A stretch of 64,000 nt of DNA from NCBI GenBank assembly GCA_963845185.1, contig CAWJRG010000005.1, forward strand, positions 740,867 through 804,866, in the 5' to 3' direction. The stretch comes from an uncultured bacterium (lineage in GTDB: Bacteria; Oederibacteriota; PGYV01; CAWJRG01). Under the pieces are notes generated by a model. That model ran no database searches and was not told the origin of the DNA. It saw only the letters and a program-made list of their open reading frames with translations. Positions 1,572 through 43,389 of the stretch are shown piece after piece (the first letter of the stretch is position 1; the number at the start of each line of letters is the position of its first letter). The position numbers and the translations under genes are program-made.

Positions 1572-1898
1572 TATGTCAATGTTTTTGAGACAAACCCGCA
1601 GGGTGCAGTCGAAAATTACATTGACATACACCCGTTCAAGTCTGAGGCCGTAAGGCCGAAGACAAGCGGTGTCCTATTTGCCAAGCTTACCAGCGCAGAC
1701 AAAATATTACGAAATCATGTACCCGCTCAAGTATGGACCGCAGGTCCGGACAAGCGGTACTTGATATCATTTAGTTTACTTTGTCAAGCCGTCAACAGGA
1801 GTATCATGTACTCCATGCTTCGCTGTTGACACTCCCAAAATCAAACTTTGTCAAGCCGTTCAAGTCCATAGGCCTCAAGGCCAAGGACAAGTGATACC
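1572..1898 (+). repeat. Three tandem copies of a dispersed two-hairpin element
   Basis: The core CCGYTCAAGT-hairpin-GACAAG occurs at ~1629-1671, 1719-1760 and ~1856-1898, each preceded by a separate hairpin. Confidence 0.8.
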
Positions 1899-1986
1899 AT
1901 TACAAATTTTAAATCATATTGAAATCGCGGCAATTATATCCCCTTGCAAAATAAAAAGCAAGTTTGTTTTTCCTTGAAAAGACAGT

Positions 1987-3465
1987 CTAATTAATCACGA
2001 ATATCGTGCCCTTTTTTAATATATCATCGGACTTTAACTTAATTATATAATAATACACTCCCGGCGATACCGGGCCACCGTATGAGTTCCTACCTTTCCA
2101 GTACACATCAGGAGTTTGCGCTGTCAATGAAATTACCAGCTCCGCCTATACTGTATAAATACAGATGTTTGCGCCAATAGGCAAATTGATGATTTTCAGC
2201 GCTCCTTCAAATGCTTTGCCGGGACTAAAAGGATTGGGATAAACAATAATGTCGCCGGCGGTATAAGTAGCAGTGGTTGGCGTAATCGTAGCAGTCAAAG
2301 TATTGGCATAAGCAGGTGTCCAGGTCCATGCCGGCGTCTGCGTCAAGGACGGGGTCTGGGTATTTGTCGATGTATTCGTTACCGAATCAGCCGGTGTCGA
2401 TGAATATGTCCACGTATAAGTTGGCGATAGCGTATTTGTCATTGTCACCGTAAGCGCAGGCACCGCTGTTTCAGTCATAGTTTGCGTTATTGAAGGCGTC
2501 ATTGACAAAGCCGGAGTGGGGCTGAAGCACGGGCCGAACTTTTGAATCCTGTAATTGTCCATGTCTGAAATATACACGTTGCCGCTGCTGTCCACTGCCA
2601 CTCCGGTAGGATACTCAAACTGCCCGTTGCCCATTCCTGAACCGCCCCATTGCGTTATATACGTGCCTGTACTGCTGAATTCCTGGACTCTGTTGTTATA
2701 AAGGTCTGTAACATACACGTTTCCGCTGCTGTCTGCTGCTATGCCATAAGGAGCGTTAAACTGCCCGTTGCCGCTTCCGGAACTTCCCCATTGTGTAATG
2801 TATGTGCCTGTACTGCTGAATTCTTCTATCCTGTTATTGCGTTCGTCTGTAACATATACTCCGCTGCTGTCTACTGCTACTCCATAAGGCAAGTCAAATT
2901 GCCCGTTACCTGTTCCATAAGTTCCCCATTGTGTTATATATGCGCCCGTACTGCTGAATTCCTGTACTCTGTTATTTCCCGTGTCTGCAACATATACATC
3001 CCCGCTGCTGTCCAGTGTTATTCCTTCGGGATTTTCAAACTGCCCGTTGCCGGTTCCATAAGTTCCCCATTGCGTTATATATGCATCCGTATTGCTGAAT
3101 TCTTCGATCCTGTTATTATAAAAATCTAAAACATATACATCTCCATTGTTGCTTACTGCTACTCCATCAGGGCTGTTAAATTGCCCGTTGCCGGATCCCA
3201 AAGTTCCCCATTGTGTTATATATGTGCCGCCACTGCTGAATTCCTGGATGTTGTCATTAAATTCATCTGTAACATACACATTGCCGCTGCTGTCTGCTGT
3301 TATCCCCCAGGGATATTGAAACTGGCCGTTGCCGGTTCCATTATTTCCCCATTTAAGTATGAAACAAGGGGGTGAGTCAGCCGTTGCATAGGAGCCTGTT
3401 ATCAGAATAATAAACAAAACAAACAAAAAATATTTCAATGTTTTTGCCAAACTAAATTTTCTCAT
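1987..3465 (-). pseudogene. NHL-repeat beta-propeller protein with Thr-rich linker and T9SS-CTD-like domain, in-frame TAG at 2146-2148
   Basis: Signal peptide and six NHL blades (GxGNGQFxxPxGIAxDSSGNVYV). The frame continues past the TAG as AELVISL...YWKGRNSYGGPVSPGVYYYIIKLK...KGTIFVIN*, completing the C-terminal domain. Confidence 0.75.
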
Positions 3466-3471
3466 TAATAC

Positions 3472-6400
3472 TCATTTTAATATAATAATCGTATCTGTCT
3501 TTGACCTTACCTTCACTCCGCCTTTTTCAGCAATTACCATATAATAATATGTACCCGAAGCAAGGCCGTTAAGCAAGTTACTGTCGCATGTCAAAACCAC
3601 TCCGCCTTGCACTTGTTCTACGTTCTGTCCTGTCCCATCAAATGTCTCTTCCCTTATCAGCCTGTATGCCACTGTATAAATCTTCAGCGTTATGCTGTCT
3701 ATGCCCGGCGTTAAATTAACCATTATTTTCAACTGTTCAATCACCGGGTTTATTGGGTTTGGAAATGGCATTACCGGCCCCACTGTCAGCGGCCCTGCAG
3801 GTTCCGCAGTCGGAGTACTTGTATACGCCGGCGCACATGGGCAGGTCAATGTCGTCGTAACTGTCCATATAGGCACCGGCGTGTCTGACTGCGTTGCGCT
3901 CGGCGTCATAGTTGGCGTTGCAGTTATACTTGGCGATATAGCCGGCGTATCGGTCATTGTAGAAATGGGCGGCACTGTATTTGTCAGTGTGACTGTAGGC
4001 GTAACCGAGGGTGTATCTGTAAATGACAAAGTCAATGTCGGCGTCCATGTCAATGTTGCAGTTACGCTTGCAGTGGATGTCCATGTTTGTGTTACACTCG
4101 GCGTGGCCGTAATTGTCGTTGTCGCTGAAGGAGTTATTGTCAGTGTCGGTGTAACCGTTATTGTAACGGTAGCTGTCAGCGAAGCTGTGGCAGATGTTGT
4201 CAAAAGGCTAATATCGATTGTATTCGTCTGTGTAGCCGAGGGTGTATTTGTAAACGACAATGTAATTGTCTCTGTGGCAGTCGGCGGGCACATTCCATAT
4301 TTTATTATCCTGTTATGATTCGTATCCACAACGTACGCTGCCCCGGCGCCGTCCACTGCCAATCCATTGGGATTCATAAACTGCCCGGCTCCGCCGCCGC
4401 AAACCCCAAAACGCGTTGGGCCCGCAGTGAACCTGACTATGTTGCAGTCATCCATCCCGTACAGCGCTCCGCTGTCGTCAACTGCCAGCTCAATGGGAGC
4501 AACCAAGATTGTATTATTCTCGCTTTCATAAAACCCGTCCGGATAGAATTCCTGGATCCTGAAGTTCCCGGTATCCGCGACATATACATTTCCGTTGTGG
4601 TCCACTACTATCCCCTGCGGGTTATTAAACCACCCGATTCCGCCTCCGAGGACTCCCCACTGCTTTATATAATTGCCTGATGTATCAAATTCTTCCACCC
4701 TGTCGTTTCCGTTGTCCACAACGTATATTGCGCCGCTGCTGCTTACGGCTATTCCCCAGGGATGGTTAAACTGCCCGTTTCCGGTTCCGCTACTGCCCCA
4801 CTGCGTTACATACGTACCTGCTGATGTGAACTTTTCTATCCTGTTGTTTCCGGCATCCGTGATATAAATATATCCATTATTATCAACTGCAATAGCCTGC
4901 GGGCTGCTTAACTGCCCGTTTCCGTTTCCACAGGTACCCCACTGTCCCAAATAATTGCCTGAAGTATCAAATAGCTGTATCCTGCAGTTGTTGGCATCCG
5001 CCACATATACTGTCCCGCCCGAGTCTATGGCTATCCCCTGCGGAGAGTTAAACTGCCCGTTTCCGCCTCCATAGCTCCCCCACTCCATGCTGTAACACAA
5101 AGGGTTAGGGTTAACCGTAGGCGTTATGGTTGATGTTGCGGTAAAGACCGGTGTTTGTGTAAATGTCACAGTTGGCGTATTTGTCAGCATAAACGTCGGC
5201 GTGCTTGTCTGTGTCTGCGTCAAAATTTGCGTTATCGAAGGCGTCATTGATACAGTCGGGGTAGAGCCAGCGCACGGGCCGAATTTTTGAATCCTGTTAT
5301 TATTTGAGTCCACCGCATACACATCTTCGCTGCTGTCTACTGCTAATCCCAGGGGGTTGGCAAACTGTGCGTTACCTGTCCCGTTGATGCCCCACTGTGT
5401 TATATATGTGCCTGTACTGCTGAATTCTTCTATCCTGTTATTATTCGAGTCTGAGACATACACGTTTCCGCCCGAGTCTGTTGCCAGTCCTTCGGGGCCA
5501 TTAAACTGGCCGGGACTGGTTCCTGTAGTGCCCCATTGAATTATATAAACGCCTGCATTGGTGAATTTTTGGATCCTGTTATTTATGTAGTCTGCGACAT
5601 ATACGTTCCCGCTGCTGTCCAGTGCTATTCCTTCGGGACTGATAAACTGCCCGTTGCTGGTACCAAAGCTGCCCCACTGCGTTATATATGTACCTGTACT
5701 GCTGAATTCTTCTATCCTGTCATTATTCGAGTCTGTTACATATACGTTTCCGCTGTTATTGTCCACTGCTATGTTGTAAGCCCAGTTAAACTGCCCGTTG
5801 CCTGTACCTGCGCTGCCCCACTGCGTTATATATGTGCCTGTACTTGTGAATTTTTGAACCCTTTTATTGTTCGAGTCTGCGACGTACACATTTCCGATGC
5901 TGTCCAATGCTATCCCGTAAGGATAACTAAATTGCCCGTTTCCGGTTCCGGTAGTACCCCATTGTGTCATATATGCGCCCGTGCCGGTGAATTCCTGTAT
6001 CCTGTTATTGTTTGTGTCCGCGATATATACGTTCCCGTTGCTGTCTGTTGCTGCTCCGTTTGGAAAGTAAAACTGCCCGTTGCCGGACCCGCTGCTGCCC
6101 CATTTCGTGACATAGCACGGCGTTGGACCGGATACTAAGGTAGAGGTATAAGTTGGCGTTATTGTAGATGTGCCTGTTACTGTCTGTGTTATTGTAGAAG
6201 TCACGGTAAAAGTCGCCGTTGATGTCTGCGTAAGGATCCGGGTATTGGTTGGCGTTATTGTCTGCGTTGAAGAAGGGCATAATCCGAATTTTTGAATCCT
6301 GTTATTAAACATGTCCGCAACATACACATTTCCGATGCTGTCTGACGCCATCCCTGTAGGCAGGTAAAATTTTCCGTTGCCGTTCCCGAAACCGCCCCAT

Positions 6401-8229
6401 TGTGTTATATATGTGCCCGTGCTGCTGAATTCCTGTATCCTGTCATTGTTGTAATCGGAGACATACACATTTCCGCCGGCGTCTATTGCTATTCCATATG
6501 GATTTTCAAACTGCCCCGGATTGGTTCCGGCGTTGCCCCACTGGGTGATGTATGCGCCCGAACTGCTGAATTCTTCGATTCTGTTATTCTGCATGTCTGT
6601 TACATACACGTTTCCGCTACTGTCTATTGCTATTCCAACAGGCAAATAAAACTGCCCGTTGCCGGCTCCGTAACCGCCCCATTGGGTAATATACGCGCCT
6701 GAACTGCTGAATTCCTGTATCCTGTCATTATAAGTATCTGCGACATACACGTCTGTGCTGCTGCCACTGCTGCTATTATCTACTGCTGCTCCATATGGAT
6801 ATTCAAACTGCCCGTTGCCGGCTCCGTAACCGCCCCATTGGGTAATATACGTGCCTGAACTGCTGAATTCCTGTATCCTGTGGTTATCATAATCCACAGC
6901 ATACACATTCCCGCTGCTGTTGCATACCGCCACTCCATAAGCAAATGCAAACTGCCCGTTGCCTGTCCCGGAACTTCCCCACTGTGTTATATATGTGCCT
7001 GTGCTGCTGAATTCCTGTATTCTGTTATTCTGCATTTCCGCAACATACACATCCCCGCTGCTGTCTACTGCCACGCCTCTGGGTTCGTTAAACTGCCCGT
7101 TGCCGGACCCGCTGCTGCCCCATTGGGATATATAACAAGGTGTCGGCCCGGAAATTAAAGTAGCTGTGTAAGTCGGTGTCGGCGATACCACAGGCGTATT
7201 TGTCTGCGTCGGCGTGTTTGTAATTGTCGGTGTCGTAGTACTTGTCGGCGTATTGGTTGAAGTTGAGGTCTGCGTACAATCCGGAGTAGGGGACATGTAA
7301 GGGCATACTCCAAACTTTTGGACCCTGCTGTTATTCGTATCTGAAACATATACGTCCCCGCTGCTGTCTGCTGCTATTCCGGCAGGGCGGTTAAACTGCC
7401 CGTTTCCGCTTCCTGAACTGCCCCACTGGGTTATGTAAGTGCCCGTGCTGGTGAATTCCTGGATCCTGTAATTATTCCAGTCTGTAACATAAATGTTTCC
7501 GCTGCTGTCTATTGCAATATTAGCAGGTTCGTTAAACTGCCCGTTGCCGGTTCCGAAATTACCCCATTGCGTTATATACGTGCCCGTGCTGCTGAATTCT
7601 TCAATTCTGTCATTTCCCATATCTGCAACATACACGTCCCCGCTGCTGTCTATTGCTATTCCTTCAGGATAATTAAATTGCCCGTTGCCGGTTCCGCTGC
7701 TTCCTAATTGTGTTATATAAGTGCCTGCACTGCTGAATTCTTCTACCCTGCTGTTTTGATAGTCTGAAACATACACGTTTCCGCTGCTGTTTACTGCTAT
7801 GCCCGAGGGCATGTTGAACTGGCCGTTGCCGCTTCCCGAACTGCCCCATTGGGTTATGTAAGTGCCTGTACTGCTTAATTCCTCGATTCTGCTGTTGCCG
7901 TAATCTACAATATACATGTCTCCGCTGCTGTCTATTGCTATTTCTTCAGGCAAATAAAACTGCCCGTTGCCTGTCCCGTAACTTCCCCACTGCGCTATAT
8001 ATGCGCCCGTACTGCTGAATTCCTCGATTCTGTCGTTATACGCGTCTGCAACATACACGTTCCCGCTGCTGTCCAATGCCACCCCGCTGAGTTCATTAAA
8101 CTGCCCGTTTCCGCTTCCGTTGCTTCCCCATGCAAGAATAAAGCAAGGCGGTGATGCAGCCGTTGCATGGGAACTTATTATGAAAAATGTAAATAAAAGA
8201 ACCGGAAAATATTTCAGTAATTTTTTCAA
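3472..8229 (-). CDS. Secreted protein with four NHL six-bladed beta-propellers, Thr/Pro linkers and a T9SS-CTD-like domain
   Basis: TTG start with GGAGGT RBS, signal peptide, about 24 NHL repeats, and C-terminal PFPNPINP...IYTVAYRLI...SGTYYY. Confidence 0.9.
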   Translation of the reverse strand: MKKLLKYFPVLLFTFFIISSHATAASPPCFILAWGSNGSGNGQFNELSGVALDSSGNVYVADAYNDRIEEFSSTGAYIAQWGSYGTGNGQFYLPEEIAIDSSGDMYIVDYGNSRIEELSSTGTYITQWGSSGSGNGQFNMPSGIAVNSSGNVYVSDYQNSRVEEFSSAGTYITQLGSSGTGNGQFNYPEGIAIDSSGDVYVADMGNDRIEEFSSTGTYITQWGNFGTGNGQFNEPANIAIDSSGNIYVTDWNNYRIQEFTSTGTYITQWGSSGSGNGQFNRPAGIAADSSGDVYVSDTNNSRVQKFGVCPYMSPTPDCTQTSTSTNTPTSTTTPTITNTPTQTNTPVVSPTPTYTATLISGPTPCYISQWGSSGSGNGQFNEPRGVAVDSSGDVYVAEMQNNRIQEFSSTGTYITQWGSSGTGNGQFAFAYGVAVCNSSGNVYAVDYDNHRIQEFSSSGTYITQWGGYGAGNGQFEYPYGAAVDNSSSGSSTDVYVADTYNDRIQEFSSSGAYITQWGGYGAGNGQFYLPVGIAIDSSGNVYVTDMQNNRIEEFSSSGAYITQWGNAGTNPGQFENPYGIAIDAGGNVYVSDYNNDRIQEFSSTGTYITQWGGFGNGNGKFYLPTGMASDSIGNVYVADMFNNRIQKFGLCPSSTQTITPTNTRILTQTSTATFTVTSTITQTVTGTSTITPTYTSTLVSGPTPCYVTKWGSSGSGNGQFYFPNGAATDSNGNVYIADTNNNRIQEFTGTGAYMTQWGTTGTGNGQFSYPYGIALDSIGNVYVADSNNKRVQKFTSTGTYITQWGSAGTGNGQFNWAYNIAVDNNSGNVYVTDSNNDRIEEFSSTGTYITQWGSFGTSNGQFISPEGIALDSSGNVYVADYINNRIQKFTNAGVYIIQWGTTGTSPGQFNGPEGLATDSGGNVYVSDSNNNRIEEFSSTGTYITQWGINGTGNAQFANPLGLAVDSSEDVYAVDSNNNRIQKFGPCAGSTPTVSMTPSITQILTQTQTSTPTFMLTNTPTVTFTQTPVFTATSTITPTVNPNPLCYSMEWGSYGGGNGQFNSPQGIAIDSGGTVYVADANNCRIQLFDTSGNYLGQWGTCGNGNGQLSSPQAIAVDNNGYIYITDAGNNRIEKFTSAGTYVTQWGSSGTGNGQFNHPWGIAVSSSGAIYVVDNGNDRVEEFDTSGNYIKQWGVLGGGIGWFNNPQGIVVDHNGNVYVADTGNFRIQEFYPDGFYESENNTILVAPIELAVDDSGALYGMDDCNIVRFTAGPTRFGVCGGGAGQFMNPNGLAVDGAGAAYVVDTNHNRIIKYGMCPPTATETITLSFTNTPSATQTNTIDISLLTTSATASLTATVTITVTPTLTITPSATTTITATPSVTQTWTSTASVTATLTWTPTLTLSFTDTPSVTPTVTLTNTVPPISTMTDTPAISPSITATPTMTPSATQSDTPVPIWTVTTTLTCPCAPAYTSTPTAEPAGPLTVGPVMPFPNPINPVIEQLKIMVNLTPGIDSITLKIYTVAYRLIREETFDGTGQNVEQVQGGVVLTCDSNLLNGLASGTYYYMVIAEKGGVKVRSKTDTIIILK

Positions 8230-8393
8230 TTTAAATACCTCCGTTTGTATTTGTATTAAAAATCTTTGTGCTAAATCACGAATTATGCATTAGACGTATT
8301 AATTATAATTTAGTTTACCGCGCAATTGCAGCTTTCAATTTATCTTTTAAACCGCCTATATCTGTGCCAAATTAAATTTTCTCCCTTGATTTC

Positions 8394-8545
8394 GTTTATT
8401 TTGCCAAGCCGTCAACAGTCGCATCATGTACTCCATGCTTCTCATGGACATGTCAGAGTAATGATTCTGCTTCGCTGTTGACGCTCTCAAAATCAAACTC
8501 TGTCAAGCCGCTCAAGTCCAGGCCGCAGGTCCGGACAAACGGTAT
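8394..8545 (+). repeat. Two-hairpin element copy, near-duplicate of 1773-1898
   Basis: TTGCCAAGCCGTCAACAG...CGCTGTTGAC...CAAAATCAAACT...CCGCTCAAGTCC...GGACAAACGGTA. Confidence 0.85.
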
Positions 8546-8582
8546 TTTCAGTTTTCAACTCCCAATTAACTGCTTCAATACA

Positions 8583-11500
8583 TTACTTTAATATAATAAT
8601 CGTATCAGTCTTAGACTTTACCTTCACTCCGCCTTTTTCGGCTATTACCATATAATAATATGTACCTGAGCTAAAACCATTAAATAAGTTGCTGTCGCAG
8701 GTCAAAACTAATCCACCTTCTACCTGTTCTACGTTTTGCCCTGTTCCGTCAAATATTTCTTCCTTTATCAGTCTGTACGCCACTGTATATATTTTCAGAG
8801 TCATACTGTCTATATTGTTTTGCGACATATTAACCAGTATTTTTAAAGGTGTTATTACAGGATTAATCGGGTTTGGATAAGGCATTACTGTCCCTACTTT
8901 CAGCGGCCCAGTCGGCGGCAATGTAGGTGTATTTGTCATTGTAATTGTCAGCGGTATTGTAGGCGTATCGGTCATTGTTATTGTGCCCATGGCTGTGTTT
9001 GTCGCTATCAATGTACAGGCGCACGTCGCTGTATATGTAGGGGTGGGTGATGGGAAGTAAACTACAATATATGTAGCAGTAATGGTGTATGTCCACACGC
9101 ACGGCCCGCAAGTATATGTAGAAGTAATTGTAGGCGTGGCCGTCAGAGTGATCGCACCCGAAGTAATCGTCATAGTTACCGTACACGTATTCGTTATTGT
9201 CTGGATAAAGACTATTCCTGTTAGCGTCATCGTTATCGTATATGTAGGTGTGTTTGATAAAACAGGCGATATGGTGGATGTAGGTGTAGCCGTATTTGTC
9301 GGCGTATTTGATACTATAGGCGATATTGTGCATGTCGGAGTTATGGTTGGAGACAAACATATTCCGAATTTTTCTATCCTGTTGTTATAATAATCCGCTA
9401 CATATACTTCATCGCTTCCGTCTATTGCGATACCGGAAGGAGAATTAAACTGTCCGGCTCCGGTACCTCTTGTGCCCCACTGAGTTTTATATGTGCCGTC
9501 GGAGCTGAATTTTTGTATTCTGTTGTTATTTGGGTCGGCTACATAAAGCGCGCCACTGCTGTCAAATGCCATGCATAATGGGCCCTCAAATGCCCCGTTT
9601 CCCGTCCCCTGACTTCCCCACCTTGTAATATATGAGCCGGTTGACGAGAATATATCAATCCAGTTGTACATCCAATCGGCAACAAATACGTTGCCGTTGG
9701 CGTCTATTGCCAGTCCTACAGGTTCATACATTTCTCCGGGATAAACACCGTAAGTGCCGAATTGCCCCAGATATATGCCTGTTGAAGTGAATTCCTGTAT
9801 CCTGCTATTGCCTGAATCAGCCACGTATACCGTGCCGGTGAGATTATTTACCGTTACTCCTGAAGGGCGGTTGAACTGGCCGTTGCCGGTACCACTTCCG
9901 CCCCATTGTCCCAGATATGTGCCTGTTGAAGTGAATTCCTGTATCCTGTTGTTGCCTGAATCAGCCACGTATACCGTGCCGGCGGTACTTACAGCGATTA
10001 AATAAGGAGCGTTGAATTGCCCGTTCCCGCTTCCCGTGCCGCCCCACTGGGTTAAATAATTCCCCGAAGAGTCGAATTTCTCTATCCTGTTATTGCCAAT
10101 ATCGACCACATATACATTTCCGCCGGTATCAATGGCCAGTGAATACGGATTGTTAAATTGACCGTTGCCGGTCCCTGATGTCCCCCATTGAAACATATAA
10201 CACGGCGGATTCGTGCTGATAAACATTGTCGCGGTAAAAGTCGGCGTGGCTGATACAACAGGCGATATTGTAATTGTATTTGTAATCGAATATGTCGGCG
10301 TTATCGAGTATGTATTTGTTATCGTGTATGTGGGTGTGTACGTCAAGACCGGCGATATTGTGCCTGATATTGTATATGTAGGCGTATTTGTAGCGGTTAT
10401 AACAATGGCTGTATAAGACTTTGTTATGGTATAAGTCGGAGTGATAGTATTGGTAAAAACTATTCCTGTCAATGTCGGCGTAGGAGATATTATACCGGTT
10501 TGCGTCTGCGTAAAAGTGTCCTGCGGCGTGTTTGTAACAGTAGGTGAAAGATAACAGATGGTAAATGTCATCGTAATTGTGTATGTTACCGTAATTGTTG
10601 GCGTATTGGTGAATGTTGGCGAAATTGTAAATGTAGGTGTCTCTGATACTTCCGGTGAAATGGTGCTTGTCGGTGAAAATGTCAATGTAGGTGTTACCGA
10701 AGGCGTGGGCGTTGGACTGGATAAAGGCGCATCATTTCCATTAGCGTCTGTTTTGATTAAATATACGTCATACCCGCCTGCGCCAAACGAGTTTGTATAC
10801 CCTGCTATAATATACCCGCCGTCGCTCGTCTGTTGCACCGACTGTCCTTCATCATCGCCACTGCCGCCAAATGTCTGTGTCCATACACTATTCCCGCTCG
10901 CATCAGCTTTAATCAGATATACATCATTTCCTCCGGCTCCAAATGAGGCTGTATACCCTGTTGCTATGTACCCTCCATCGCCTGTCTGCTACACTGACCG
11001 TCCTTCATCATCGCCACTGCCGCCAAACGTCTGTGTCCAAACACTATTCCCGCTCGCATCAGCTTTAATTAGATATACATCATTTCCTCCGGCTCCAAAT
11101 GAGGCTGTATACCCTGTTACTATATACCCTCCATCGCCTGTCTGCTGCACTGAATAGCCGGCATCATCATTATTTCCACCAAAATGAGTATATGATTGCT
11201 GGTTCCCATTCGCGTCGGTTTTAATCAAAACGACATGATTATATTCCGGCACACCAAAGCCTAATGAATTTGTGCTGCCTGTAATAATATATCCCCCATC
11301 GTTCGTCAACTGCATCGAATAACCCCTATCGGTAGCATATCCATAGGTTTGGCTCCAAACACTATTCCCGTCTGCATCGGTCTTTATCAAAAATTCTTTA
11401 ACCCACGAATTATTATTAATAGCAGTTCCTGCTATTGCATACCCTCCATCGCTTGTTTGCCTTACTGAATAACCTGTAATATATTTGCTGTTGCTTCCGC

Positions 11501-12149: not shown

Positions 12150-12178
12150 TTGACATGCATCGAGTTTTACCTTATAAT
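12150..12178 (+). promoter_or_regulatory. Sigma70-type promoter of the rpmH operon
   Basis: Perfect TTGACA (12150-12155), 17-bp spacer, TATAAT (12173-12178). Confidence 0.85.
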
Positions 12179-12236
12179 TCCCTCATAATTTAAAACCTTT
12201 TTTAAACTTTACTTATTAAAAAAACCGGAGAAAAAA

Positions 12237-12377
12237 ATGCCAAAAAGGACTTTTCAGCCCCACAGGAAAAGGGCAAAGAGAAAACACGGATTCTTACGCA
12301 GGATGTCTTCGCACGGAGGCCGCAGGGTCATTAACGCGAGGCGGAGAAAAGGCAGAAAAAAACTTACCAGGGTATAG
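12237..12377 (+). CDS. rpmH: 50S ribosomal protein L34
   Basis: Below the ORF-track cutoff. Translates to [46 protein letters not shown]. Confidence 0.97.
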
Positions 12378-12395
12378 GATTTCAGGAGTTTTTCA

Positions 12396-12740
12396 ATTAT
12401 CAATAAATTATCCACCAGGCAGCAAATACGTTTGTTAATGAAAACCGGGGTAAAAGTCCAGAATGAATTTTTTTCTGTTTTTGCGAATGCCAAAAACCCC
12501 GAAGCAAAAAAAAACGCGTTTTTTGTCGCTAATATAGCAAAAAAATCAATAGCCAAAAGCGTGGACAGGAACCTTTACAAGCGCCGGATAAAATCAGTTT
12601 TTATCAACCACAGGGGTGAGTTTAAAAACCTGGATGTTTTGATTATGCCCGGCAAAAAACTGAACACGCTGAAAAGCTTTGCTGAAATCGAGGAAAAATT
12701 GAATATTCTATTTAAGCAGCTTACAGGGAGGCAGGTATGA
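12396..12740 (+). CDS. rnpA: Ribonuclease P protein component, start uncertain (probable ATT at 12396)
   Basis: RNR-like motif [11 protein letters not shown] and position between rpmH and yidD. Confidence 0.85.
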
Positions 12741-12946
12741 AAACAGTATTAATAGCCCTGCTTTCTTTTTATAAAAAATTCATATCCCCTTTCATGCCGC
12801 GCTCATGCAGGTTTTATCCCACATGCGCCGATTATTCAAAGGAAGCTATAATTAAATACGGCGCGGCGCGCGGCGCAGTGAAGTCGATAAAAAGGATTTG
12901 CAAGTGTCACCCTTTTCATCCCGGCGGATATGATCCCGTGGAATAG
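12737..12946 (+). CDS. yidD: Membrane protein insertion efficiency factor
   Basis: CRFYPTCxxY and [16 protein letters not shown] motifs. Confidence 0.97.
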
Positions 12947-13040
12947 ACAGGAAAGAACAATTAAAATTGTCAATTAAGGTTTGTTTTTCATTGATAATTG
13001 AAACCTGATAATTGAAAATTATTTTAACCCGGAGGTTTTA

Positions 13041-14678
13041 ATGGACGATAATACAAAAAGGCTTTTGATATTCATAGCGCTGGCAGCAGGCATACTTTTC
13101 TTTTATAACAAGGTTTTCACGCCGCCCAACGCGGCAAGAAATTCCCAGCAGCCCGTCACGGCAGCGGTAAATTCATCCGGCGCTTCTTCCGGAGCCGCAT
13201 CGCCTGCTATTGTAATGGAAACCAAACCGGCCTCAAAGCCCAAGTCTGAAAAAACATACACGCTTGAAAACGACCTTGTTAAAATTACCTTTTCAAATAT
13301 AGGCGGGGGCATAATAAAAAGCTGCCTTTTAAAAAAATATTCGGATTCAGACAAGGGCAAAGAGCCGCTTGAGCTTGTTGCCGACAGTTCCTCGTATGAT
13401 TACATGTCGCTTTCTTCCCCTTCACTTAAACTCAATGAACTTGCGTGGAAAACTCCCGGTATAGGCATACGCGGCCAGGATACTGTAATATCCTTCTCAA
13501 CCCAGTTGCCCGGCATGGAAATAGTACGGCAGTTCGTGCTTAAAAATTCCTCCTACGAGCTTGAATCCACGATAAAATTCATAAACAAGTCCCTTACCCC
13601 TGCAGCCATCCAGGATTTAAAACTCGAGTGGGGCCCGAACGTGCATTTAATGCCGCAGGAAGCCAAAAAAACAAACGTCGGCATGGGCCAATATAATTAC
13701 AACAAAGTTATGTACATGGCAGCCAATAATTTAAAAACAATTAACTTAAAGCCGGTATCAGCCGAGACAATAAACGTGATTTCCGAAAAGCCCTCCTGGA
13801 TTGTGCTCCGCGACCTTTATTTCATGAGTTCTTTTATTTTACAGGACACCGCGGCCGTAAAAAACGCCTATGTAAGACAAAATATTGACGGTTCAGGCAC
13901 CATAGGCCTGAACTTTGAAAATATAATAGTGGACAAATCCTCGGAAAAATCAATTACACTGGATTCCTTTATCGGCCCGCAGGAATACAAAAGGCTCCAC
14001 ACCGTGGGCCTGGAAAAAGTGATCGGCATGGGCTGGGTGAGGCTCCTCGGCGTAGGCATGCTGTATGCCCTCGAATTCCTTTATAGCATTACGCGCAACT
14101 ACGGCGTGGCCATAATACTGCTGACGCTCATAATAAGACTGCTGCTGTGGGCTCCGTCGCAGAACACTTACAAGCACATGAAGGACATGCAGAAAAAAAT
14201 GAGCGTTATCAAACCCCGGCTGGATACCCTGCAGAAAATATACAAAAACGACGCGGCAAAACTGAACGAAGAAACAATGAAGCTTTACAAGGAATACAAG
14301 ATAAACCCTCTCGGCGGCTGCCTGCCGTCATTGCTGCAGCTGCCCATATTCATAGCGCTTTACGCGACCCTCGTCAATATGGTCGAGCTGAAAGGCGCTG
14401 GTTTTGCCGGCTGGCTGACCGACCTGTCAAGCTATGACAAATTTTATGTTTTGCCCGTGCTCATGGGTGTTACCATGTTTATCCAGCAGAAAATGACGAC
14501 CACGGTTTCCACCACGCCCGAGCAGGTGGCGCAGCAAAAAATATTCATGTACGGCATGCCCGTGTTTTTTGCCTTCATGTCCCTGCACTGGCCGTCCGGC
14601 CTCTTGCTTTACTGGGCGGTCTCAAATGTACTTTCGATAATCCAGCAGGTTTTTGTCAATAAAACAAATATAGCTTAA
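13041..14678 (+). CDS. yidC: Membrane protein insertase YidC
   Basis: Large periplasmic domain, NYGVAIILLT, INPLGGCLP, QLPIF and GLLLYW motifs. Confidence 0.97.
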   Translation: MDDNTKRLLIFIALAAGILFFYNKVFTPPNAARNSQQPVTAAVNSSGASSGAASPAIVMETKPASKPKSEKTYTLENDLVKITFSNIGGGIIKSCLLKKYSDSDKGKEPLELVADSSSYDYMSLSSPSLKLNELAWKTPGIGIRGQDTVISFSTQLPGMEIVRQFVLKNSSYELESTIKFINKSLTPAAIQDLKLEWGPNVHLMPQEAKKTNVGMGQYNYNKVMYMAANNLKTINLKPVSAETINVISEKPSWIVLRDLYFMSSFILQDTAAVKNAYVRQNIDGSGTIGLNFENIIVDKSSEKSITLDSFIGPQEYKRLHTVGLEKVIGMGWVRLLGVGMLYALEFLYSITRNYGVAIILLTLIIRLLLWAPSQNTYKHMKDMQKKMSVIKPRLDTLQKIYKNDAAKLNEETMKLYKEYKINPLGGCLPSLLQLPIFIALYATLVNMVELKGAGFAGWLTDLSSYDKFYVLPVLMGVTMFIQQKMTTTVSTTPEQVAQQKIFMYGMPVFFAFMSLHWPSGLLLYWAVSNVLSIIQQVFVNKTNIA

Positions 14679-14690
14679 AAAGGATAAAAA

Positions 14691-15335
14691 ATGACCCAGT
14701 CAAGGAAGACATGCGGGACAATCTCAGGTGCGGTAAAAGAATTCTTGACCGAGAACAACCTCGGCCTTGACTGCGTAACCGCAAACCTTGTGTGCGAAAA
14801 GATATTCACCGACAAAAAGGAATACACGCTTGAATTGTGCAGGAGAATAAAACAGGAACGCAAATACCCGGAAATACAGGAATGCGACATCACCTTCATA
14901 GAATCAACAATAAACCATTTGCTCAGCCTTATGAAATTCATCGATTTTACCGTCACTCATTGTATTGAAAACGACATGGCCATAATAAAAATATCCGCGC
15001 CGAACAAGGACGGCCTTCTCATAGGGAAAAACGGCCAGAACCTGCTTGCCTTGCAGTACCTGCTCTCGATAATACTCGACAAAAAACTGAAAAAGCACGT
15101 CCCTTTTGCCGTAAACGTCGATTCATACATGGAAAAAAGATGCGCATACCTCAAGGGCCTGGCCAGGACGCTCGCCGAACGGGTCATTCAGGAAAACTCC
15201 GAAGCCGTAACTGATTACCTGCCTGCTTACGAGCGCAAGATAATCCACGAGGAAATTTCGTCAATGCAGCCCCTGAAAACATTCAGCGTAGGCAGGGGGC
15301 CTTATAAAAAGGTTGTAATAACGGCTTTATTATGA
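14691..15335 (+). CDS. jag: Jag/EloR KH-R3H RNA-binding protein
   Basis: KH motif LIGKNGQNLLALQYL, R3H motif ERKIIH, and synteny after yidC. Confidence 0.9.
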   Translation: MTQSRKTCGTISGAVKEFLTENNLGLDCVTANLVCEKIFTDKKEYTLELCRRIKQERKYPEIQECDITFIESTINHLLSLMKFIDFTVTHCIENDMAIIKISAPNKDGLLIGKNGQNLLALQYLLSIILDKKLKKHVPFAVNVDSYMEKRCAYLKGLARTLAERVIQENSEAVTDYLPAYERKIIHEEISSMQPLKTFSVGRGPYKKVVITALL

Positions 15336-15359
15336 GCAATCTTGGGTAACGGTGCGTTC

Positions 15360-16748: not shown

Positions 16749-16753
16749 AAGTA

Positions 16754-16846
16754 CGTTGATTTTGTCGAGCGTCAACAGCGACGACAAAATCTTACGGACC
16801 CTTATACCCGCTCAAGTCCCGAGCGCAGTGAGGGACAAGAGGTATA
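16754..16846 (+). repeat. Two-hairpin element copy
   Basis: CGTTGATTTTGTCG...CGACAAAATCTTACG followed by TACCCGCTCAAGTCCC...GGGACAAGAGGTA. Confidence 0.85.
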
Positions 16847-19422: not shown

Positions 19423-20244
19423 TCAGTAGAACTCCAGCTTATCTATCCAAATATCAACCTTATGCCCGTCGCCGTTTTCATATTCCCACTTTATCAGATT
19501 TGCGTCTGAAAGGACTTTCTCTATATCAAACCTTTCGTCCGGCTTTACCCAGTCAGGCTGTTTTAAATCTTTCCTGAAATTTATTTTTACTTCTTTCCAG
19601 TCCGGGGTTATATTTTTTGTAATGTCTGCCTCATAATCGGCGTAACTTGTCAGGCTCTTGCAAATCCCCCTGCTCTTGTCTATTACTCGCGCTTCATGAG
19701 GCAGTATAAAAACAACTCTCCCACCCTCAACTTTGCCTTTTATCTTGAATTTTATTCCTGTAAACCTGCTCAGGTCGATTCCAATACACTCGGGACATGT
19801 GGCGTGCGGGCTTAAAAATGTGTTCACACCGATAAAATCATATTTAAGTTTTGTGCCGGCTGTGCCTGTTATCCTTATGGCGTATCCCTTGCCGCTTGAG
19901 CCGGGCGAACTTTTTACGAAATTATTTTCTCCCTTTGTGGAAGCAGGCGGCCATACTGTCGAATCCCCTCCATAATAATGGTCGTCATAAGTGCACCAGA
20001 TTCCGCCCAGTTCATTGAATTTGGTGTCAGTATTGTTATAATCTATTATCATATACGAGCTTACAGCGGCTATCGCAAGCACTACGGCAAAGGCAGGAAT
20101 GAGCTTTATCGCCAAAACCGTCTTTTTTGCCTGTTTTTTTGACTTTAAAACAAGGGCTTTCTTTATATATGCCTTATTCTTCGGCATTGTTATGTCATCC
20201 AGCGCCGCGTCTTCAATCTTTTTTATAAAATCCTTGCCTTCCAT
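19423..20244 (-). CDS. Putative anti-sigma factor with an extracytoplasmic CBM11/CIA30-like domain
   Basis: Short cytoplasmic N-terminus, one TM helix, then GGIWCTYDD...DLSRFTGIKFKIKG...DIWIDKLEFY. Lies directly downstream of the ECF sigma. Confidence 0.7.
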   Translation of the reverse strand: MEGKDFIKKIEDAALDDITMPKNKAYIKKALVLKSKKQAKKTVLAIKLIPAFAVVLAIAAVSSYMIIDYNNTDTKFNELGGIWCTYDDHYYGGDSTVWPPASTKGENNFVKSSPGSSGKGYAIRITGTAGTKLKYDFIGVNTFLSPHATCPECIGIDLSRFTGIKFKIKGKVEGGRVVFILPHEARVIDKSRGICKSLTSYADYEADITKNITPDWKEVKINFRKDLKQPDWVKPDERFDIEKVLSDANLIKWEYENGDGHKVDIWIDKLEFY

Positions 20245-20263: not shown

Positions 20264-20426
20264 GACCGTTAGTTTTGACGAACGTCAACAGTAGTCAAAT
20301 AGTCCTGTGGACTATTTGACGGGTAGTTTCCATACGTCATCTAATATCAATATAAAGACTACCCGTCAAAACCTTACGGGCTCTTGTACCCGCTCAAGTT
20401 CCAAACTTATTTGGAACAAGTGGTAG
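20264..20426 (+). repeat. Two-hairpin element copy with internal insertion, overlapping the sigma stop codon
   Basis: CCGTTAGTTTTGACG...CGTCAAAACCTTACGG followed by TACCCGCTCAAGTTCC-AAACTTATTT-GGAACAAGTGGTA. Confidence 0.8.
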
Positions 20427-21042
20427 TTCTATCTTTTATAATGCATGTGCCCTCAGAAGGTTGCACGCAGCCTGCTTCCACCTTTTTCCTGAGCATTTCA
20501 ACGCCCCTTGAGATAAGCGATTTTACAGTCCCTTCTTTTTTACCCAGTATTTCGCATATTTCAGTGATTTTCTTTTGTTCAAGGAACCTTAGCGCGAGCG
20601 TTTCCTGGTATTTTTGCGGCAGTTCAAACAGCGCATCCTTGATTGCTATATAATTCCGGTTGTTGTCGATCGCCGCCTGCGCCTCGGCTATTTCTTTTTC
20701 CAGATCGGCCTGCGATGCCGGTTCAGGCATATTGTTTTCTTCTATGGCCTGCTCAAGCGAAACCGGCTCGTATTTTTTCTTCCTGAAGTACTGGTTTACC
20801 TCGTTTGACGCTATTTTATAGAGCCATGCTGAAAAAGGCGCGCCGGTCCAGCGGAACTGCCAGAGATTTTTCAGCGCCCTGAAAAACACCTCGGAAGTGA
20901 TATCCCTGGCAGCCTCCGCGTTTCCCGTGCGGTGAAAATTATATCTGAGTATTTTCGGGTAGTATTCCTCAAATAATTTCGCGAATGCTTCCGGGTCTTT
21001 TTTTGATTTCTCTACGAGCTGCTTTTCAGCCGCCCTGTCCAT
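20407..21042 (-). CDS. ECF (group 4) RNA polymerase sigma factor
   Basis: Region 2 AFAKLFEEY...ARDITSEVF...FSAWLYKIASN and region 4 ELPQKYQETLALRF...EILGKKEGTVKSLISRG. ATG at 21042 follows a GGAGG RBS. Confidence 0.93.
   Translation of the reverse strand: MDRAAEKQLVEKSKKDPEAFAKLFEEYYPKILRYNFHRTGNAEAARDITSEVFFRALKNLWQFRWTGAPFSAWLYKIASNEVNQYFRKKKYEPVSLEQAIEENNMPEPASQADLEKEIAEAQAAIDNNRNYIAIKDALFELPQKYQETLALRFLEQKKITEICEILGKKEGTVKSLISRGVEMLRKKVEAGCVQPSEGTCIIKDRTTTCSK
20437..20465 (-). promoter_or_regulatory. Putative ECF promoter inside the 3' end of the sigma gene
   Basis: TGCAACCTT-N11-TGCATTATA, with the same boxes and spacing as the copy at 21100-21128. Confidence 0.6.
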
Positions 21043-21099
21043 GCGTGCCTCCGAGGTTTGGCGCTTCAAAAGGTTTGTTATTTATATGCCTTCAAATAG

Positions 21100-34802: not shown

Positions 34803-34849
34803 AAAAAAAATGACCCAGTTTTAACATATTATATTAAAACCGGGTCATT
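34803..34849 (-). terminator. Intrinsic terminator after hup
   Basis: AATGACCC...GGGTCATT stem followed by a U-tract on the minus strand. Confidence 0.65.
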
Positions 34850-38184: not shown

Positions 38185-39480
38185 CTATTTCTGCGAAATC
38201 GCCAACGCCTCATCTAGCGCTTCCTTTATGTCGTCAATGTGCTCTATGCCTATGGACAGCCTTATAAGGTCCGGTGTAATACCGGATTCTTTTTGCTGTT
38301 GCTCTGTCAGCTGCGAATGTGTCGTGCTGGCACTGTGAATAATAAGGCTCTTTGCGTCCCCGACATTGGCAAGGTTAGAAAATAATTTAATGTTGTCAAT
38401 CAGTTTCACGGCAGGCTTGTATCCGCCCTTTAAACCGAATACGATCATACCGCCAAAACCGTTCATAAAAATTTTTTTAGCTATCGCATGGTCAGGATGG
38501 CTTTCAAGTCCCGGATACTTTACCCAGCTGACTGCAGGGTGCTTTTCCAGGAATTTTGCGGCCTCCAGTGCGTTGTCAGAATGCCTCTGCATTCTCAAAG
38601 GCAGGGTTTCTAAACCCTGTATTATCTGCCATGCATTGTCCGGTGATAAACAGGCACCCAGGTTGCGCAACGGCACAAGTCTTAAACGCAGAGCATATGC
38701 AAGAGAAGACAGGGGCCCAAGATCATAAGCGAACCTCAGGTCATGGTAACTCGGTTCGGGTGCGTTAAAATTCGGGAATCTTTTGTCTTTCCATTCAAAT
38801 TTTCCGCCATCAACTACAATTCCGCCGATTATCGTGCCGTGGCCGCTGTACCATTTCGTCAGGGAAATGACTACAATGTCTGCCCCGTGTTCTATAGTTT
38901 TAATTATATATGGAGTAGTAAAGGTGGCGTCGACAACCAAAGGTATTTTATGTTTCTTCGCCACTTTTGATACAGCCTCAATATCTGTAACACCCAGCAG
39001 TGGATTGCCTATCGTTTCAATAAAAATCACTTTTGTTTTTTCTGTTATAGCCTTTTCATAAGCAGCTATGTCGTCATACTGGACAAATTTAGTTTTTACT
39101 CCGTAATTCGGCAGGATATTGTTGAACATCGTATATGTCCCTCCATACAGGTTATTTGCAGACACGATTTCATCGCCTTCTCTTGTGATGTTCAGGATTG
39201 CGTAATGTATCGCAGATGTGCCTGAAGATGTGGCTACTGCACCAACCCCGCCCTCAATAGTAGCCACCCTGTTCTCCAGTATTTCAGTCGTAGGATTTCC
39301 GAGCCTGGTATATATATTGCCCATCTCCTTCAGTGCAAAAAGGTTTGCTCCGTGTTCCGTACTCTTGAAATTATACGCAGCGGTCCTGTAAAGCGGTACT
39401 GCCCTTGACTGTGTGGTAGGATCGTTTGCATACGCCGCATGTAAAACCTGTGTCTCCAGCCTGTAATTTTTTTCACTCAT
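38185..39480 (-). CDS. metY: O-acetylhomoserine aminocarboxypropyltransferase
   Basis: YTRLGNPT, SLTKW (PLP lysine), ANVGDAKSL, STTHSQL and RLSIGIE. Confidence 0.95.
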   Translation of the reverse strand: MSEKNYRLETQVLHAAYANDPTTQSRAVPLYRTAAYNFKSTEHGANLFALKEMGNIYTRLGNPTTEILENRVATIEGGVGAVATSSGTSAIHYAILNITREGDEIVSANNLYGGTYTMFNNILPNYGVKTKFVQYDDIAAYEKAITEKTKVIFIETIGNPLLGVTDIEAVSKVAKKHKIPLVVDATFTTPYIIKTIEHGADIVVISLTKWYSGHGTIIGGIVVDGGKFEWKDKRFPNFNAPEPSYHDLRFAYDLGPLSSLAYALRLRLVPLRNLGACLSPDNAWQIIQGLETLPLRMQRHSDNALEAAKFLEKHPAVSWVKYPGLESHPDHAIAKKIFMNGFGGMIVFGLKGGYKPAVKLIDNIKLFSNLANVGDAKSLIIHSASTTHSQLTEQQQKESGITPDLIRLSIGIEHIDDIKEALDEALAISQK

Positions 39481-39497
39481 GTTTTTTCTCCTTTAAG

Positions 39498-39588
39498 TCC
39501 GTTGATTTTGCCAAGCGTCTAGCGCAGGCAAAATCTTACGGAATTTTATACCCGTTCAAGTCCCCAGCTTGTGAGGGACAAGAGGTAT
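39498..39588 (+). repeat. Two-hairpin element copy filling the cysK-metY spacer
   Basis: TCCGTTGATTTTGCC...GGCAAAATCTTACGGA followed by TACCCGTTCAAGTCCC...GGGACAAGAGGTA. Confidence 0.85.
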
Positions 39589-39590
39589 TT

Positions 39591-41007: not shown

Positions 41008-41038
41008 TTTGTCTCCTTCTCTTTCTTTTATACTCTAT

Positions 41039-41093
41039 AATCTCTATCGGATTAGTCGTGTATAAGTATATAAAAAAATCCCTTTTTTGTCAA
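41039..41093 (-). promoter_or_regulatory. Sigma70 promoter with an adjacent Rrf2-type operator
   Basis: TTGACA (41093-41088), 17-bp spacer, TATACT (41070-41065), then ATACACGACTAATCCGATAGAGATT. Confidence 0.7.
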
Positions 41094-41121
41094 GGGAATT
41101 TTTAAAATTATTTTAACAGTA

Positions 41122-41196
41122 ATAAAAAATAATGGGAGAGCTAATTTAGTGGCAATTCACGCCGCTCTCCCATTAGCCTTGTGTTTCTAAGGCTGT
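41122..41196 (-). ncRNA. Candidate ~75-nt small RNA
   Basis: Own TTGACT-17-TATACA promoter (41231-41203), a 6-bp hairpin, then a 12-bp stem plus U-tract. No ORF on this strand. Confidence 0.5.
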
Positions 41197-41354
41197 AATG
41201 TATGTATACCATATGTTCATCAAAAAGTCAAGTTCGATTGCCAATTTCAGTAATTTTTTAGTCCTTATTTTCAGGTTTATAAATAATTGAATGTATGTTA
41301 TTGTTTTTTAAATTACAAAACACAATAAAAAAATGATCTCAAAAAGAGGCGCTA

Positions 41355-42200: not shown

Positions 42201-42250
42201 ATCATTTTTAATTTTTTATTCCGGTTTTAAAACATTTCCAATTCAAAATA

Positions 42251-43279
42251 TCATGGCGTTACCCAGACATCGTTCCTGTTGCCGTTTATATCTGTTCCGC
42301 CTAGCATCCAGAGTTTATTATTATAAATCAAGATTTGATGATTATACCTTGGCCTGAATGCGGCTGCACTTGTCGTCATGTACCAGTCGGTCCCATTCAT
42401 TGAATTCCACAAATCGTTTTTCATCGTGGTTCCTTTTTCGTCGAGTGCCCCGCCCATCACAAATATCCTGCCGTTAAATACATATGTGGCGTCCCCCTGC
42501 CTTGCCTCAAAAGCCGCTGTGGTTACTGCCTGGTACCAGTCTTTGCCACTGTCCGACCACCATATGTCGTTTAAAAGTTTTCCATTCGCAATGCCGCCTA
42601 TTACCCAAAGTTTGCTGTTGAATGAAGCTGCGGTAAATTTTTCCCTTGGCCCGAAAGCGGCTGTATCTGTTATTTTCTGCCATGTACCGCCGTTATCTGA
42701 CGACCATACATCACTCATTACTCCTTTTGATGTCCTGCCGCCTATTAAAAATATTTTGCCGTTATATACGATCCCGCAGCTTCCTTCCCTGGGCGCAAAT
42801 TCTGCGGAAGCAGCGGCCTTTTTCCACGAGCCGCCGTCTGAAGATGACCATATGTCGTTTTTTAAATTTCCATCATTCCCCGAAATAACCCATAATTTAT
42901 TGTCATAAACAAGTGTTGCAAAACCCGACCTTGGGGAAAAATCTGCGTTTGGGGTAACCTTCTGCCACGTCGTTCCGTCGGTCGTCGACAAAACATCGTT
43001 TATTTTTGCTGTGTTTGTCAGACCTCCAATTATCCAAATTTTATCTAAAAACACTGCCGCACCAAACTGCGTCCTGGCTGAAAAAGTATTTGTGATGCCC
43101 GCAGGTAACCATACGGTGCCTGGCACAGGCGTAATTGACGCAGTTTGCGGACTTCCGCTTCCGCCCTGCGAGCTGCCGTACGGGGTAGTAGGAGCCCCGC
43201 CTGTTTGCGAACAGTTTGAAATAAAACACAATATAACAATAACTGCAGCTGCTATAAACATCCATTTTTTTTCAGTCAT
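42251..43279 (-). CDS. Kelch-like beta-propeller protein, probable lipoprotein
   Basis: Six F.pR....(F/Y)..KIWxIGG...NDxWxSxDG repeats. Hydrophobic leader ending ISNC. Confidence 0.8.
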   Translation of the reverse strand: MTEKKWMFIAAAVIVILCFISNCSQTGGAPTTPYGSSQGGSGSPQTASITPVPGTVWLPAGITNTFSARTQFGAAVFLDKIWIIGGLTNTAKINDVLSTTDGTTWQKVTPNADFSPRSGFATLVYDNKLWVISGNDGNLKNDIWSSSDGGSWKKAAASAEFAPREGSCGIVYNGKIFLIGGRTSKGVMSDVWSSDNGGTWQKITDTAAFGPREKFTAASFNSKLWVIGGIANGKLLNDIWWSDSGKDWYQAVTTAAFEARQGDATYVFNGRIFVMGGALDEKGTTMKNDLWNSMNGTDWYMTTSAAAFRPRYNHQILIYNNKLWMLGGTDINGNRNDVWVTP

Positions 43280-43296
43280 TTATGTCTCCGATACAA

Positions 43297-43389
43297 GAGT
43301 TTATTTTGTCAACCTATAGGCACAATAAAATATTGCCCCTGCTTGCATCCATTCAAGTCTGAGGCTTATTGGCCTAGGATAAGCGGTGC
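43297..43389 (+). repeat. Degenerate two-hairpin element copy
   Basis: TATTTTGTCAAC...AAAATA followed by CCATTCAAGTCTGAGGC...GGCCTAGGATAAGCGGTG, most similar to the copy at 1629. Confidence 0.7.

Follow-up and report, generated by a model that had tools for sequence, protein, structure and literature searches.

We analysed a window of 64,000 nt from an uncultured bacterium (contig CAWJRG010000005.1, positions 740,867 to 804,866), in which a short repeat made of two hairpins, here called A (5′) and B (3′), recurs between genes. Every copy in the window lies between two co-directional genes. At five loci the repeat is antisense to genes of the minus strand (an NHL-repeat gene and a DUF2569 gene; two NHL genes; an extracytoplasmic function (ECF) sigma gene and the next open reading frame (ORF); cysK and metY; an unnamed gene and a kelch gene), and at one locus it is in the sense orientation, between mnmE and a small ORF on the plus strand. 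The genes that flank copies are housekeeping genes with no function in common.

Eight copies of the repeat in the window

The original prediction, made from the letters of the window, described a dispersed family of eight copies at six loci, all on the plus strand. The pattern TCAAGTN{6,30}AYAARNGRT, which describes hairpin B, matched eight times at six loci within 1572–43390, always on the plus strand (starts at 1636, 1727, 1860, 8512, 16812, 20394, 39556 and 43353), against a chance expectation of 0.13; eight matches were reached by 0 of 100 shuffles. A covariance model of hairpin B (R1) recovered the same eight copies at 42.0–55.3 bits and none elsewhere in the 64 kb. The pattern count against shuffles and the covariance model thus bore out the predicted number, loci and strand. 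The 10-mer of B alone, with two mismatches allowed, was uninformative (68 matches versus 82 expected).

Hairpin A was found 5′ of B in all eight copies, giving a repeat unit of ~85–165 nt (B ~41–47 nt, A 44–114 nt; Table 1). Its presence was as predicted; the form of A described as typical, ATTTTG...CAAAAT, was exact in two of the eight copies only (16759 and 39505). In the copies at 1774, 8393 and 20266, further hairpins are nested within the loop of A. The small B loops noted in the prediction are present, C-GCA-G in three of the eight window copies and C-GTAA-G in one. The inner stem of B, described there as covarying, does so, and the outer stems covary as well (see below).

Table 1. Positions of the two hairpins of each repeat copy, and of the genes whose ribosome-binding site (RBS) adjoins a left end, in the window.
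Feature	Position	Strand	Description
Copy 1, hairpin A	1572..1628	+	Long variable outer stem ATGTCAATG/CATTGACAT; A model 21.4 bits
Copy 1, hairpin A core	1572..1628	+	TTTTTGAGAC...GTCGAAAATTA, resembling the type found in related genomes
Copy 1, hairpin B	1627..1673	+	B model 55.3 bits; pattern match
Copy 2, hairpin A	1676..1711	+	5′-truncated
Copy 2, hairpin B	1718..1761	+	B model 52.6 bits
Copy 3, hairpin A	1774..1846	+	Long, nested GTCAACAG/CTGTTGAC hairpin; subfamily shared with the copy at 8393
Copy 3, hairpin B	1851..1898	+	Outer stem degraded; B model 42.0 bits
Copy 4, hairpin A	8393..8498	+	Long; form of copy 3 plus ~32 additional loop bases
Copy 4, hairpin B	8503..8546	+	B model 44.3 bits
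Copy 5, hairpin A	16751..16799	+	Sole sense copy in the window; 3 nt past the mnmE stop; A model 32.4 bits
Copy 5, hairpin B	16803..16846	+	3′ arm contains GAGG 7 nt before ATG 16850; B model 53.0 bits
Copy 6, hairpin A	20266..20379	+	Two additional hairpins nested in loop
Copy 6, hairpin B	20385..20427	+	Reverse complement is the end of ECF sigma ORF 20407–21069; B model 49.5 bits
Copy 7, hairpin A	39496..39545	+	Ends 5 nt from the metY RBS complement; A model 30.7 bits
Copy 7, hairpin B	39547..39589	+	2 nt from the cysK stop; B model 52.7 bits
Copy 8, hairpin A	43297..43338	+	Degenerate; A model 21.3 bits; whole-copy fold z-score −0.38
Copy 8, hairpin B	43344..43390	+	B model 50.0 bits
DUF2569 gene	1013..1561	−	RBS beside a left end
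ORF after the ECF sigma gene	19423..20244	−	RBS beside a left end
metY	38185..39480	−	RBS beside a left end
kelch gene	42251..43279	−	RBS beside a left end

At four loci the left end of the repeat lies 5–12 nt from CTCC(T), the complement of the RBS of the adjoining gene. The apparent docking of the repeat on RBSs arises because the spacers are very short, the element spanning from 2–3 nt after a stop codon to 5–12 nt from the RBS; copy 7 occupies the entire cysK–metY spacer. The 1585-aa gene starts at 8229; the GGGAG beside the copy at 8393 does not serve as its RBS. At the right end of copy 5, where an RBS supplied by the repeat had been predicted at 16846, GAGG (16839–16842) does lie within the 3′ arm of B and precedes ATG 16850 by 7 nt. 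Translation shows that the ECF sigma ORF 20407–21069 ends within the reverse complement of B in copy 6 (20404–20430), which encodes its stop codon and roughly the six to eight codons before it (...RTTTCSK, by eye). The repeat has rewritten the 3′ end of this ORF.

Several other features of the window were recorded. Three adjacent minus-strand NHL-repeat beta-propeller genes (439, 1585 and 751 aa) occupy 2146–10838; they carry repeats with a 141-nt period (19–27 copies in the repeat finder), and two of their 3′ ends are 84% identical over 227 nt. Upstream of copy 5, rnpA, yidC, jag/KhpB and mnmE lie on the plus strand behind a perfect match to a TTGACA-17-TATAAT promoter at 12150 (12150–16748). 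An rnpA-yidC-jag-mnmE cluster is usually found near the replication origin; GC skew keeps its sign across the block here, and no dnaA was seen. Two ORFs of 2469 and 453 aa at 53468–62199 have no Pfam match, and GC skew is positive over this block only. A 6/12-nt periodic GTNNNNGT-type repeat at 60.1–60.8 kb occurs again inside the NHL genes (3850–4290 and 8910–9340).

Relatives in four genomes and the sites occupied

A pattern scan of 185,579 species genomes with ACCCGYTCAAGTN{6,30}RACAAGNGGT, which matches five of the eight window copies, returned 28 loci; the window's own genome was not among them. When R1 was run on these loci, 13 gave 19 hits of 51.2–69.9 bits, plus a degenerate second copy in locus L001 (34.6 bits). 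The remaining 15 loci scored 13.3–32.4 bits, were mostly GC-rich and had no hairpin A alongside, and were therefore treated as chance hits. The 13 genuine loci came from four metagenome-assembled genomes (MAGs), two of them titled candidate division FCPU426 (PMTB01..., five loci; CAWIXE01..., one locus); the other two sets were CALAOR01... (six loci) and JBAXIL01... (one locus). FCPU426 stands in the NCBI taxonomy as a candidate phylum or division only. A scan for further copies, as proposed with the original prediction, thus found them in relatives, and the covariance model separated members from chance matches. Because MetW of L021 is 66.5% identical to the window MetW over 218 aa, and its OmpA-family protein 46.7% identical to the window counterpart, the window organism is a relative of the MAGs. 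Two repeat copies lie in L021 between the OmpA-like gene and the surroundings of metW; the matching window interval contains none. Just 5′ of the OmpA-family gene, the window has a perfect 19-bp hairpin that ends in a T8 tail (34809–34849, minus strand).

In the MAGs the repeat was on the G-rich strand at 13 of 13 loci, and it was sense to both flanking genes at 12 of them; at the thirteenth (L004) it was sense to the downstream gene. A hairpin followed by a run of at least four T lay directly upstream at 10 of 13 MAG loci and at none of the six window loci; after merging the orthologous sets L001/L026/L027 and L009/L024, upstream terminators were present at 7 of 10 independent loci. Upstream of the L015 copy there is a hairpin but no T-run, and the L013 copy, in the fabG–acpP spacer, has no terminator. 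At L011 the terminator and the element are separated by an ORF-less group II intron (2148–2830, minus strand; Rfam RF02001 at 132 bits, RF01998, RF00029), which directly follows the T-run of the terminator downstream of rplS and directly precedes the repeat, so that two elements share one post-terminator site. The predicted docking on RBSs therefore held at four window loci and failed as a property of the family, MAG copies lying behind terminators at 10 of 13 loci. The left flank was pyrimidine-rich at five of six window loci and at most MAG loci, a post-hoc observation without a proper background test.

GC skew of the window plus strand was negative in every 4-kb interval from 1 to 54 kb, the plus-strand gene block included, placing the window copies on the C-rich strand, as against the G-rich strand for the MAG copies. 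The single orientation put forward in the original prediction did not stand as a rule: the repeat is antisense at five of six window loci and sense at 13 of 13 MAG loci. Since the strand rules of the window and the MAGs are opposite, there is no family-wide 'antisense' or 'one replication strand' rule.

Two further conserved sequences were seen near MAG copies. One is an unrelated repeat, ~150 nt long and bounded by inverted ends (...TATGATAAGTCGTGCC...GGCACGATAAAGAAT...), which lies 100–400 nt downstream of the two-hairpin element, in the orientation of the element, at no fewer than five MAG loci (L004:1677–1740, L009, L011, L021 and L024). The other conserved stretch, TAT(c)TTATAATAAAGCGCCAAGGA-AGGATACAAGCAAA, lies directly 3′ of B in L009, L012 and L024 (twice in L024) and may be a further module of the element.

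Paired structure and fixed mismatches

Hairpin B was examined in an alignment of 23 non-identical copies (A2) with a 17-pair structure drawn by us. Its fixed base reads (A/G)TACC-C-GCT-CAA-GTC...GAC-A-AGC-GGTA(T/C), with a bulged C after (A/G)TACC and an internal loop of CAA facing a single A, both near-invariant across the 23 copies; the apex is free. Pairing was found in 87.7% of 391 cells, versus 30.7–38.6% with the partner slid by one to three columns. Two-sided changes occurred in 9 of 17 pairs, and the covariation score was reached by 0 of 500 shuffles. RNAalifold returned essentially the same fold as the one drawn.

Hairpin A, aligned in 16 copies (A3), is long, with a variable outer stem of 6–9 bp, a variable apex and a fixed GTTA...TTAC core containing a T·T mismatch; it often carries TTTGAG...CGAAAA with tandem G·A pairs. 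Pairing was found in 87.6% of 267 cells, versus 37.5–51.0% when slid, and the covariation score was 0.373 versus 0.118 in shuffles, reached by 0 of 500. The number of pairs with double changes (9 of 18) was not beyond shuffles (reached by 102 of 500). Of the 16 A copies, 15 have the T·T mismatch, and at each of four positions 7–10 have G·A or A·G. Window-type and MAG-type A are alike, GTTAG-TTTTGA... versus GTTAGCTTTGAGG..., both finishing ...AAAA-CTTAC; the two forms are homologous.

Among mismatched cells of B, purine-purine combinations outnumbered pyrimidine-pyrimidine ones by 35 to 5. G·T versus A·C cells stood at 13:8 in B and 4:10 in A. With both the A and the B model, the sense strand scored far above the antisense strand. 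Fold z-scores of the sense strand were −2.1 to −9.6 in 9 of 10 units (copy 1 as a whole, −6.75); the sense strand was the more stable in 7 of 10 units (4/4 MAG, 3/6 window), which is weak as a strand preference. Because the models favour the sense strand and the folding energies lean the same way, the structured strand is the one chosen in the original prediction. The fixed non-Watson-Crick features (T·T, tandem G·A and the CAA/A loop) suggest that one folded strand is recognised.

Spread, function and known families

Several observations bear on how the copies arose. The copies at 16754 and 39498 align along the element and have unrelated flanks, as do those at 1774 and 8393 apart from a ~32-nt loop insertion. 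Three distinct subtypes stand head to tail at 1572–1898, and L008 has three identical 98-nt units in tandem. In L011 the loop of the element's own A encloses a window-type A hairpin in inverted orientation, which scores 34.1 bits on the opposite strand inside a hit of 43.7 bits; in L015 and L026, solitary A-like hairpins occur 3′ of B. Within the orthologous sets L001/L026/L027 and L009/L024 the fixed motifs are intact, and copy number and variable stems differ. Decay is also apparent, copy 1676 being truncated and copy 43297 degenerate. The dispersed family of the original prediction is thus upheld by similar copies with unrelated flanks and by the nested inverted A module. The family, its structure, its dispersal and its niche are established, with units that have reached unrelated intergenic sites, stand in head-to-tail arrays, nest in each other and decay. 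The sites occupied are those where insertions are tolerated: behind intrinsic terminators in the MAGs and in the stop-to-RBS spacers of operons in the window.

Comparison with known families gave no assignment. Rfam 15 had no match at gathering score across the whole window and nothing overlapping a copy at E ≤ 1, nor at E ≤ 10 in 1400–2100; at E ≤ 1 the 13 MAG loci gave only sub-threshold noise and the L011 intron. A blastn search with the copy at 16752–16846 found no match in 72,556 plasmids or 50,697 phage records. Among the matches listed for the motif strings in full-text literature, only unrelated subjects appeared, which points to chance occurrence of the strings; among the papers listed for FCPU426, none dealt with repeats. 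The prediction that this is no known family therefore agrees with Rfam 15 and with the unrelated subjects of the listed papers. Several specific origins or roles were rejected. An origin of GTTCAAGTC from a tRNA or T-arm did not hold, as ARAGORN found no tRNA and the bases beside the motif do not pair as a T-stem (by eye). A consensus promoter scan stayed at background, and no −35 lies at a spacing of 16–18 nt from the TATAAT-like run that MAG copies have 3′ of B (by eye). A terminator scan of 1–40000 lists neither A nor B, and the sequence 3′ of MAG copies is AT-rich and lacks a T-run. Group II intron models match only the separate L011 intron, and an intron remnant was rejected. A miniature inverted-repeat transposable element derived from a DDE transposon was set aside for want of terminal inverted repeats and of target-site duplication above control.

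Our preferred interpretation, to which we give an even chance, is a lineage-specific, non-coding structured repeat family similar in kind to repetitive extragenic palindromic (REP) sequences and bacterial interspersed mosaic elements (BIMEs) or to BOX elements, which spreads, or is copied, as DNA into sites that tolerate it and is passive in transcripts. The folded strand bearing G·A and T·T mismatches would be recognised by a host or element protein during copying. Inside operons the repeat would be transcribed passively, and its hairpins, by analogy with REP and BOX, may alter mRNA stability or the context of the adjacent RBS.

A number of observations weigh against this interpretation. The fixed motifs are letter-perfect at orthologous MAG loci whose neighbouring protein ends visibly differ (by eye), which could reflect a host function rather than selfish spread, and copy number in the MAGs looks low (no more than 10 exact pattern matches per MAG). 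Terminal inverted repeats are absent: the left end consists of the variable stem and GTTAG, and the right end, AAGCGGTAT, is not complementary to it (by eye). No target duplication rose above control: the longest shared flank word averaged 4.11 in 18 elements versus 4.00 in 306 mismatched flank pairs, and 6-nt flank matches at 1572 and 16754 were within the control range. No HUH or tyrosine recombinase family was found among the 50 window ORFs and the 43 ORFs flanking MAG copies, so that the HUH transposase of the REP-associated tyrosine transposase (RAYT) type, or the tyrosine recombinase, envisaged in the original prediction was near none of the copies. The only transposase match among these ORFs was a DDE_Tnp_1_6 fragment (63544–63927), 20 kb from the nearest copy, in a gene running off the window end (63999). 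Nor does this interpretation account for the opposite orientation rules of window and MAGs. Compensatory-looking change in DNA palindromes can, moreover, also come from hairpin-templated correction.

One rival is a host-selected cis-acting RNA: the sense transcript would fold, be bound by a protein such as an RNase or a processing or termination factor, and mark operon ends or intercistronic sites. The orientation in the MAGs, sense to both neighbours at 12 of 13 loci and to the downstream gene at the thirteenth, fits such a role, as do retention, motifs unchanged and stems covarying, at orthologous loci in different MAGs, the L013 copy between fabG and acpP without a terminator, the excess of G·U over A·C cells in B (13 versus 8) and the tandem G·A fixed on the sense strand. 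However, five of the six window loci are antisense to their own operon, so that sense RNA would not be made there from known genes, and little transcript is expected for the 10 of 13 MAG copies past a terminator. A·C exceeds G·T in hairpin A (10 versus 4), truncated and degenerate copies exist, and the neighbouring genes share no function. We consider a cis-RNA unlikely. If each unit were instead an independent small-RNA gene of a multi-copy family, the conserved covarying structure and the several paralogous copies per genome would be accounted for, but there is no room for a promoter (units start 0–6 nt past the terminator T-run or 3 nt past a stop codon), the promoter scan found nothing above background, B in the MAG copies has no terminator of its own behind it, and the window copies sit within operons of the other strand; this we regard as very improbable.

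A sharper version of the preferred interpretation takes the folded single strand to be the substrate of a strand-specific DNA enzyme, for example an HUH Y1 transposase, and we consider it as unlikely as the cis-RNA. With such an enzyme the repeat would work like REP with RAYT, or like IS200/IS605 ends and their miniature derivatives, units being copied or moved into single-stranded DNA beside hairpins. The lack of inverted terminal repeats and of target duplication, which counted against the preferred interpretation above, speaks for this version; imperfect hairpins with mismatches and bulges fixed on one strand only, a strand uniform per genome set (8/8 window copies, 13/13 MAG loci) and sites that adjoin other hairpins (terminators) or fall in hairpin loops agree with it. 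So do the C-GCA-G loops in three of eight window B hairpins, a type described as very stable in DNA, as the original prediction also stated. Yet no HUH gene was found among the ORFs of the window and of the MAG flanks; A and B are unlike, although the two ends of IS608 are similar to each other; and the strand is C-rich in the window and G-rich in the MAGs, which leaves no single replication rule. A conserved tetranucleotide tag, as described for REPs in part of Di Nocera 2013 (PMC3733652), is likewise missing. In its most specific form, the two hairpins would be the composite single-strand recognition site of a strand-specific FCPU426 enzyme, in a new mobile system homing 3′ of intrinsic terminators and into hairpin loops, which we think improbable. 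A hairpin-based system of this sort would combine the niche of class C group II introns with a ~95-nt unit and the fixed T·T, tandem G·A and CAA/A.

Should the repeat prove to be only another REP-like passenger, it would be ordinary. It adds to a candidate division a well-defined structured repeat family whose two modules are both supported by covariation and have covariance models that work. The fixed non-canonical features and the post-terminator position are handles for finding the recognising protein and for testing spread as single-stranded DNA against action as RNA. The family also aids intergenic annotation in these MAGs, including rewritten ORF ends such as that of the ECF sigma ORF.

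Among known systems, the repeat can be compared in function, though not in family membership, with attC sites and IS200/IS605 ends, whose recognised form is a folded single strand in which extrahelical or mismatched bases are fixed and the apex varies. The attC core is RYYYAAC...GTTRRRY; the arms here are GTTAG...CTTAC, and the window holds no integrase. Elements of the IS200/IS605 type have similar subterminal hairpins at both ends and insert 3′ of a fixed tetra- or pentanucleotide. A and B are unlike, and no integrase or TnpA gene was found among the window or MAG flank ORFs; the left flank is a T-run at 10 of 13 MAG loci and not in the window. Class C group II introns, according to part of Zimmerly and Semper 2015 (PMC4424553), insert at intrinsic terminator motifs in one orientation. 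The post-terminator niche is shared, whereas our repeat is ~95 nt with no ribozyme domains; what the two have in common is a niche, not a relationship.

The sections of Croucher 2011 (PMC3049150) that describe BOX give it modular sub-elements, a genome-variable copy number, predicted stable RNA hairpins and an intergenic, co-transcribed position, and judge it parasitic, all of which fits the repeat, as does the position of SPRITE close to 3′ gene ends. As described there, the length of BOX varies between genomes, and both BOX and RUP show target duplications and are bounded by inverted terminal repeats, neither of which is seen here; this comparison is by description rather than by sequence. 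About 61% of BOX insertions are on the leading strand in the same account, versus the uniform orientation per genome observed here.

REPs are, in the corresponding part of Di Nocera 2013 (PMC3733652), single palindromes of 20–40 bp with an unpaired GTAG or CGTC tag, mostly in inverted dimers. The repeat differs in its ~85–165 nt and two unlike hairpins head to tail, and has no unpaired tag: the foot of B, (A/G)TACC, pairs with GGTA(T/C), and CGTC is confined to the loop region of window-type A, where it is part of paired GTCAAC. The fixed internal loops (CAA/A, T·T and tandem G·A) and the phylum set it apart as well, and no RAYT was found among the ORFs searched, unlike REPIN-RAYT systems. With REP/BIME, as presented in that part of the article, it shares small size, extragenic imperfect palindromes, the lack of both target duplication and inverted terminal repeats, a location between co-directional genes and downstream of coding regions, singly or in clusters, and complementary stem changes and G·T pairs. 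The repeat is a new family of a known general kind, unusual in its two-module architecture and in its niche.

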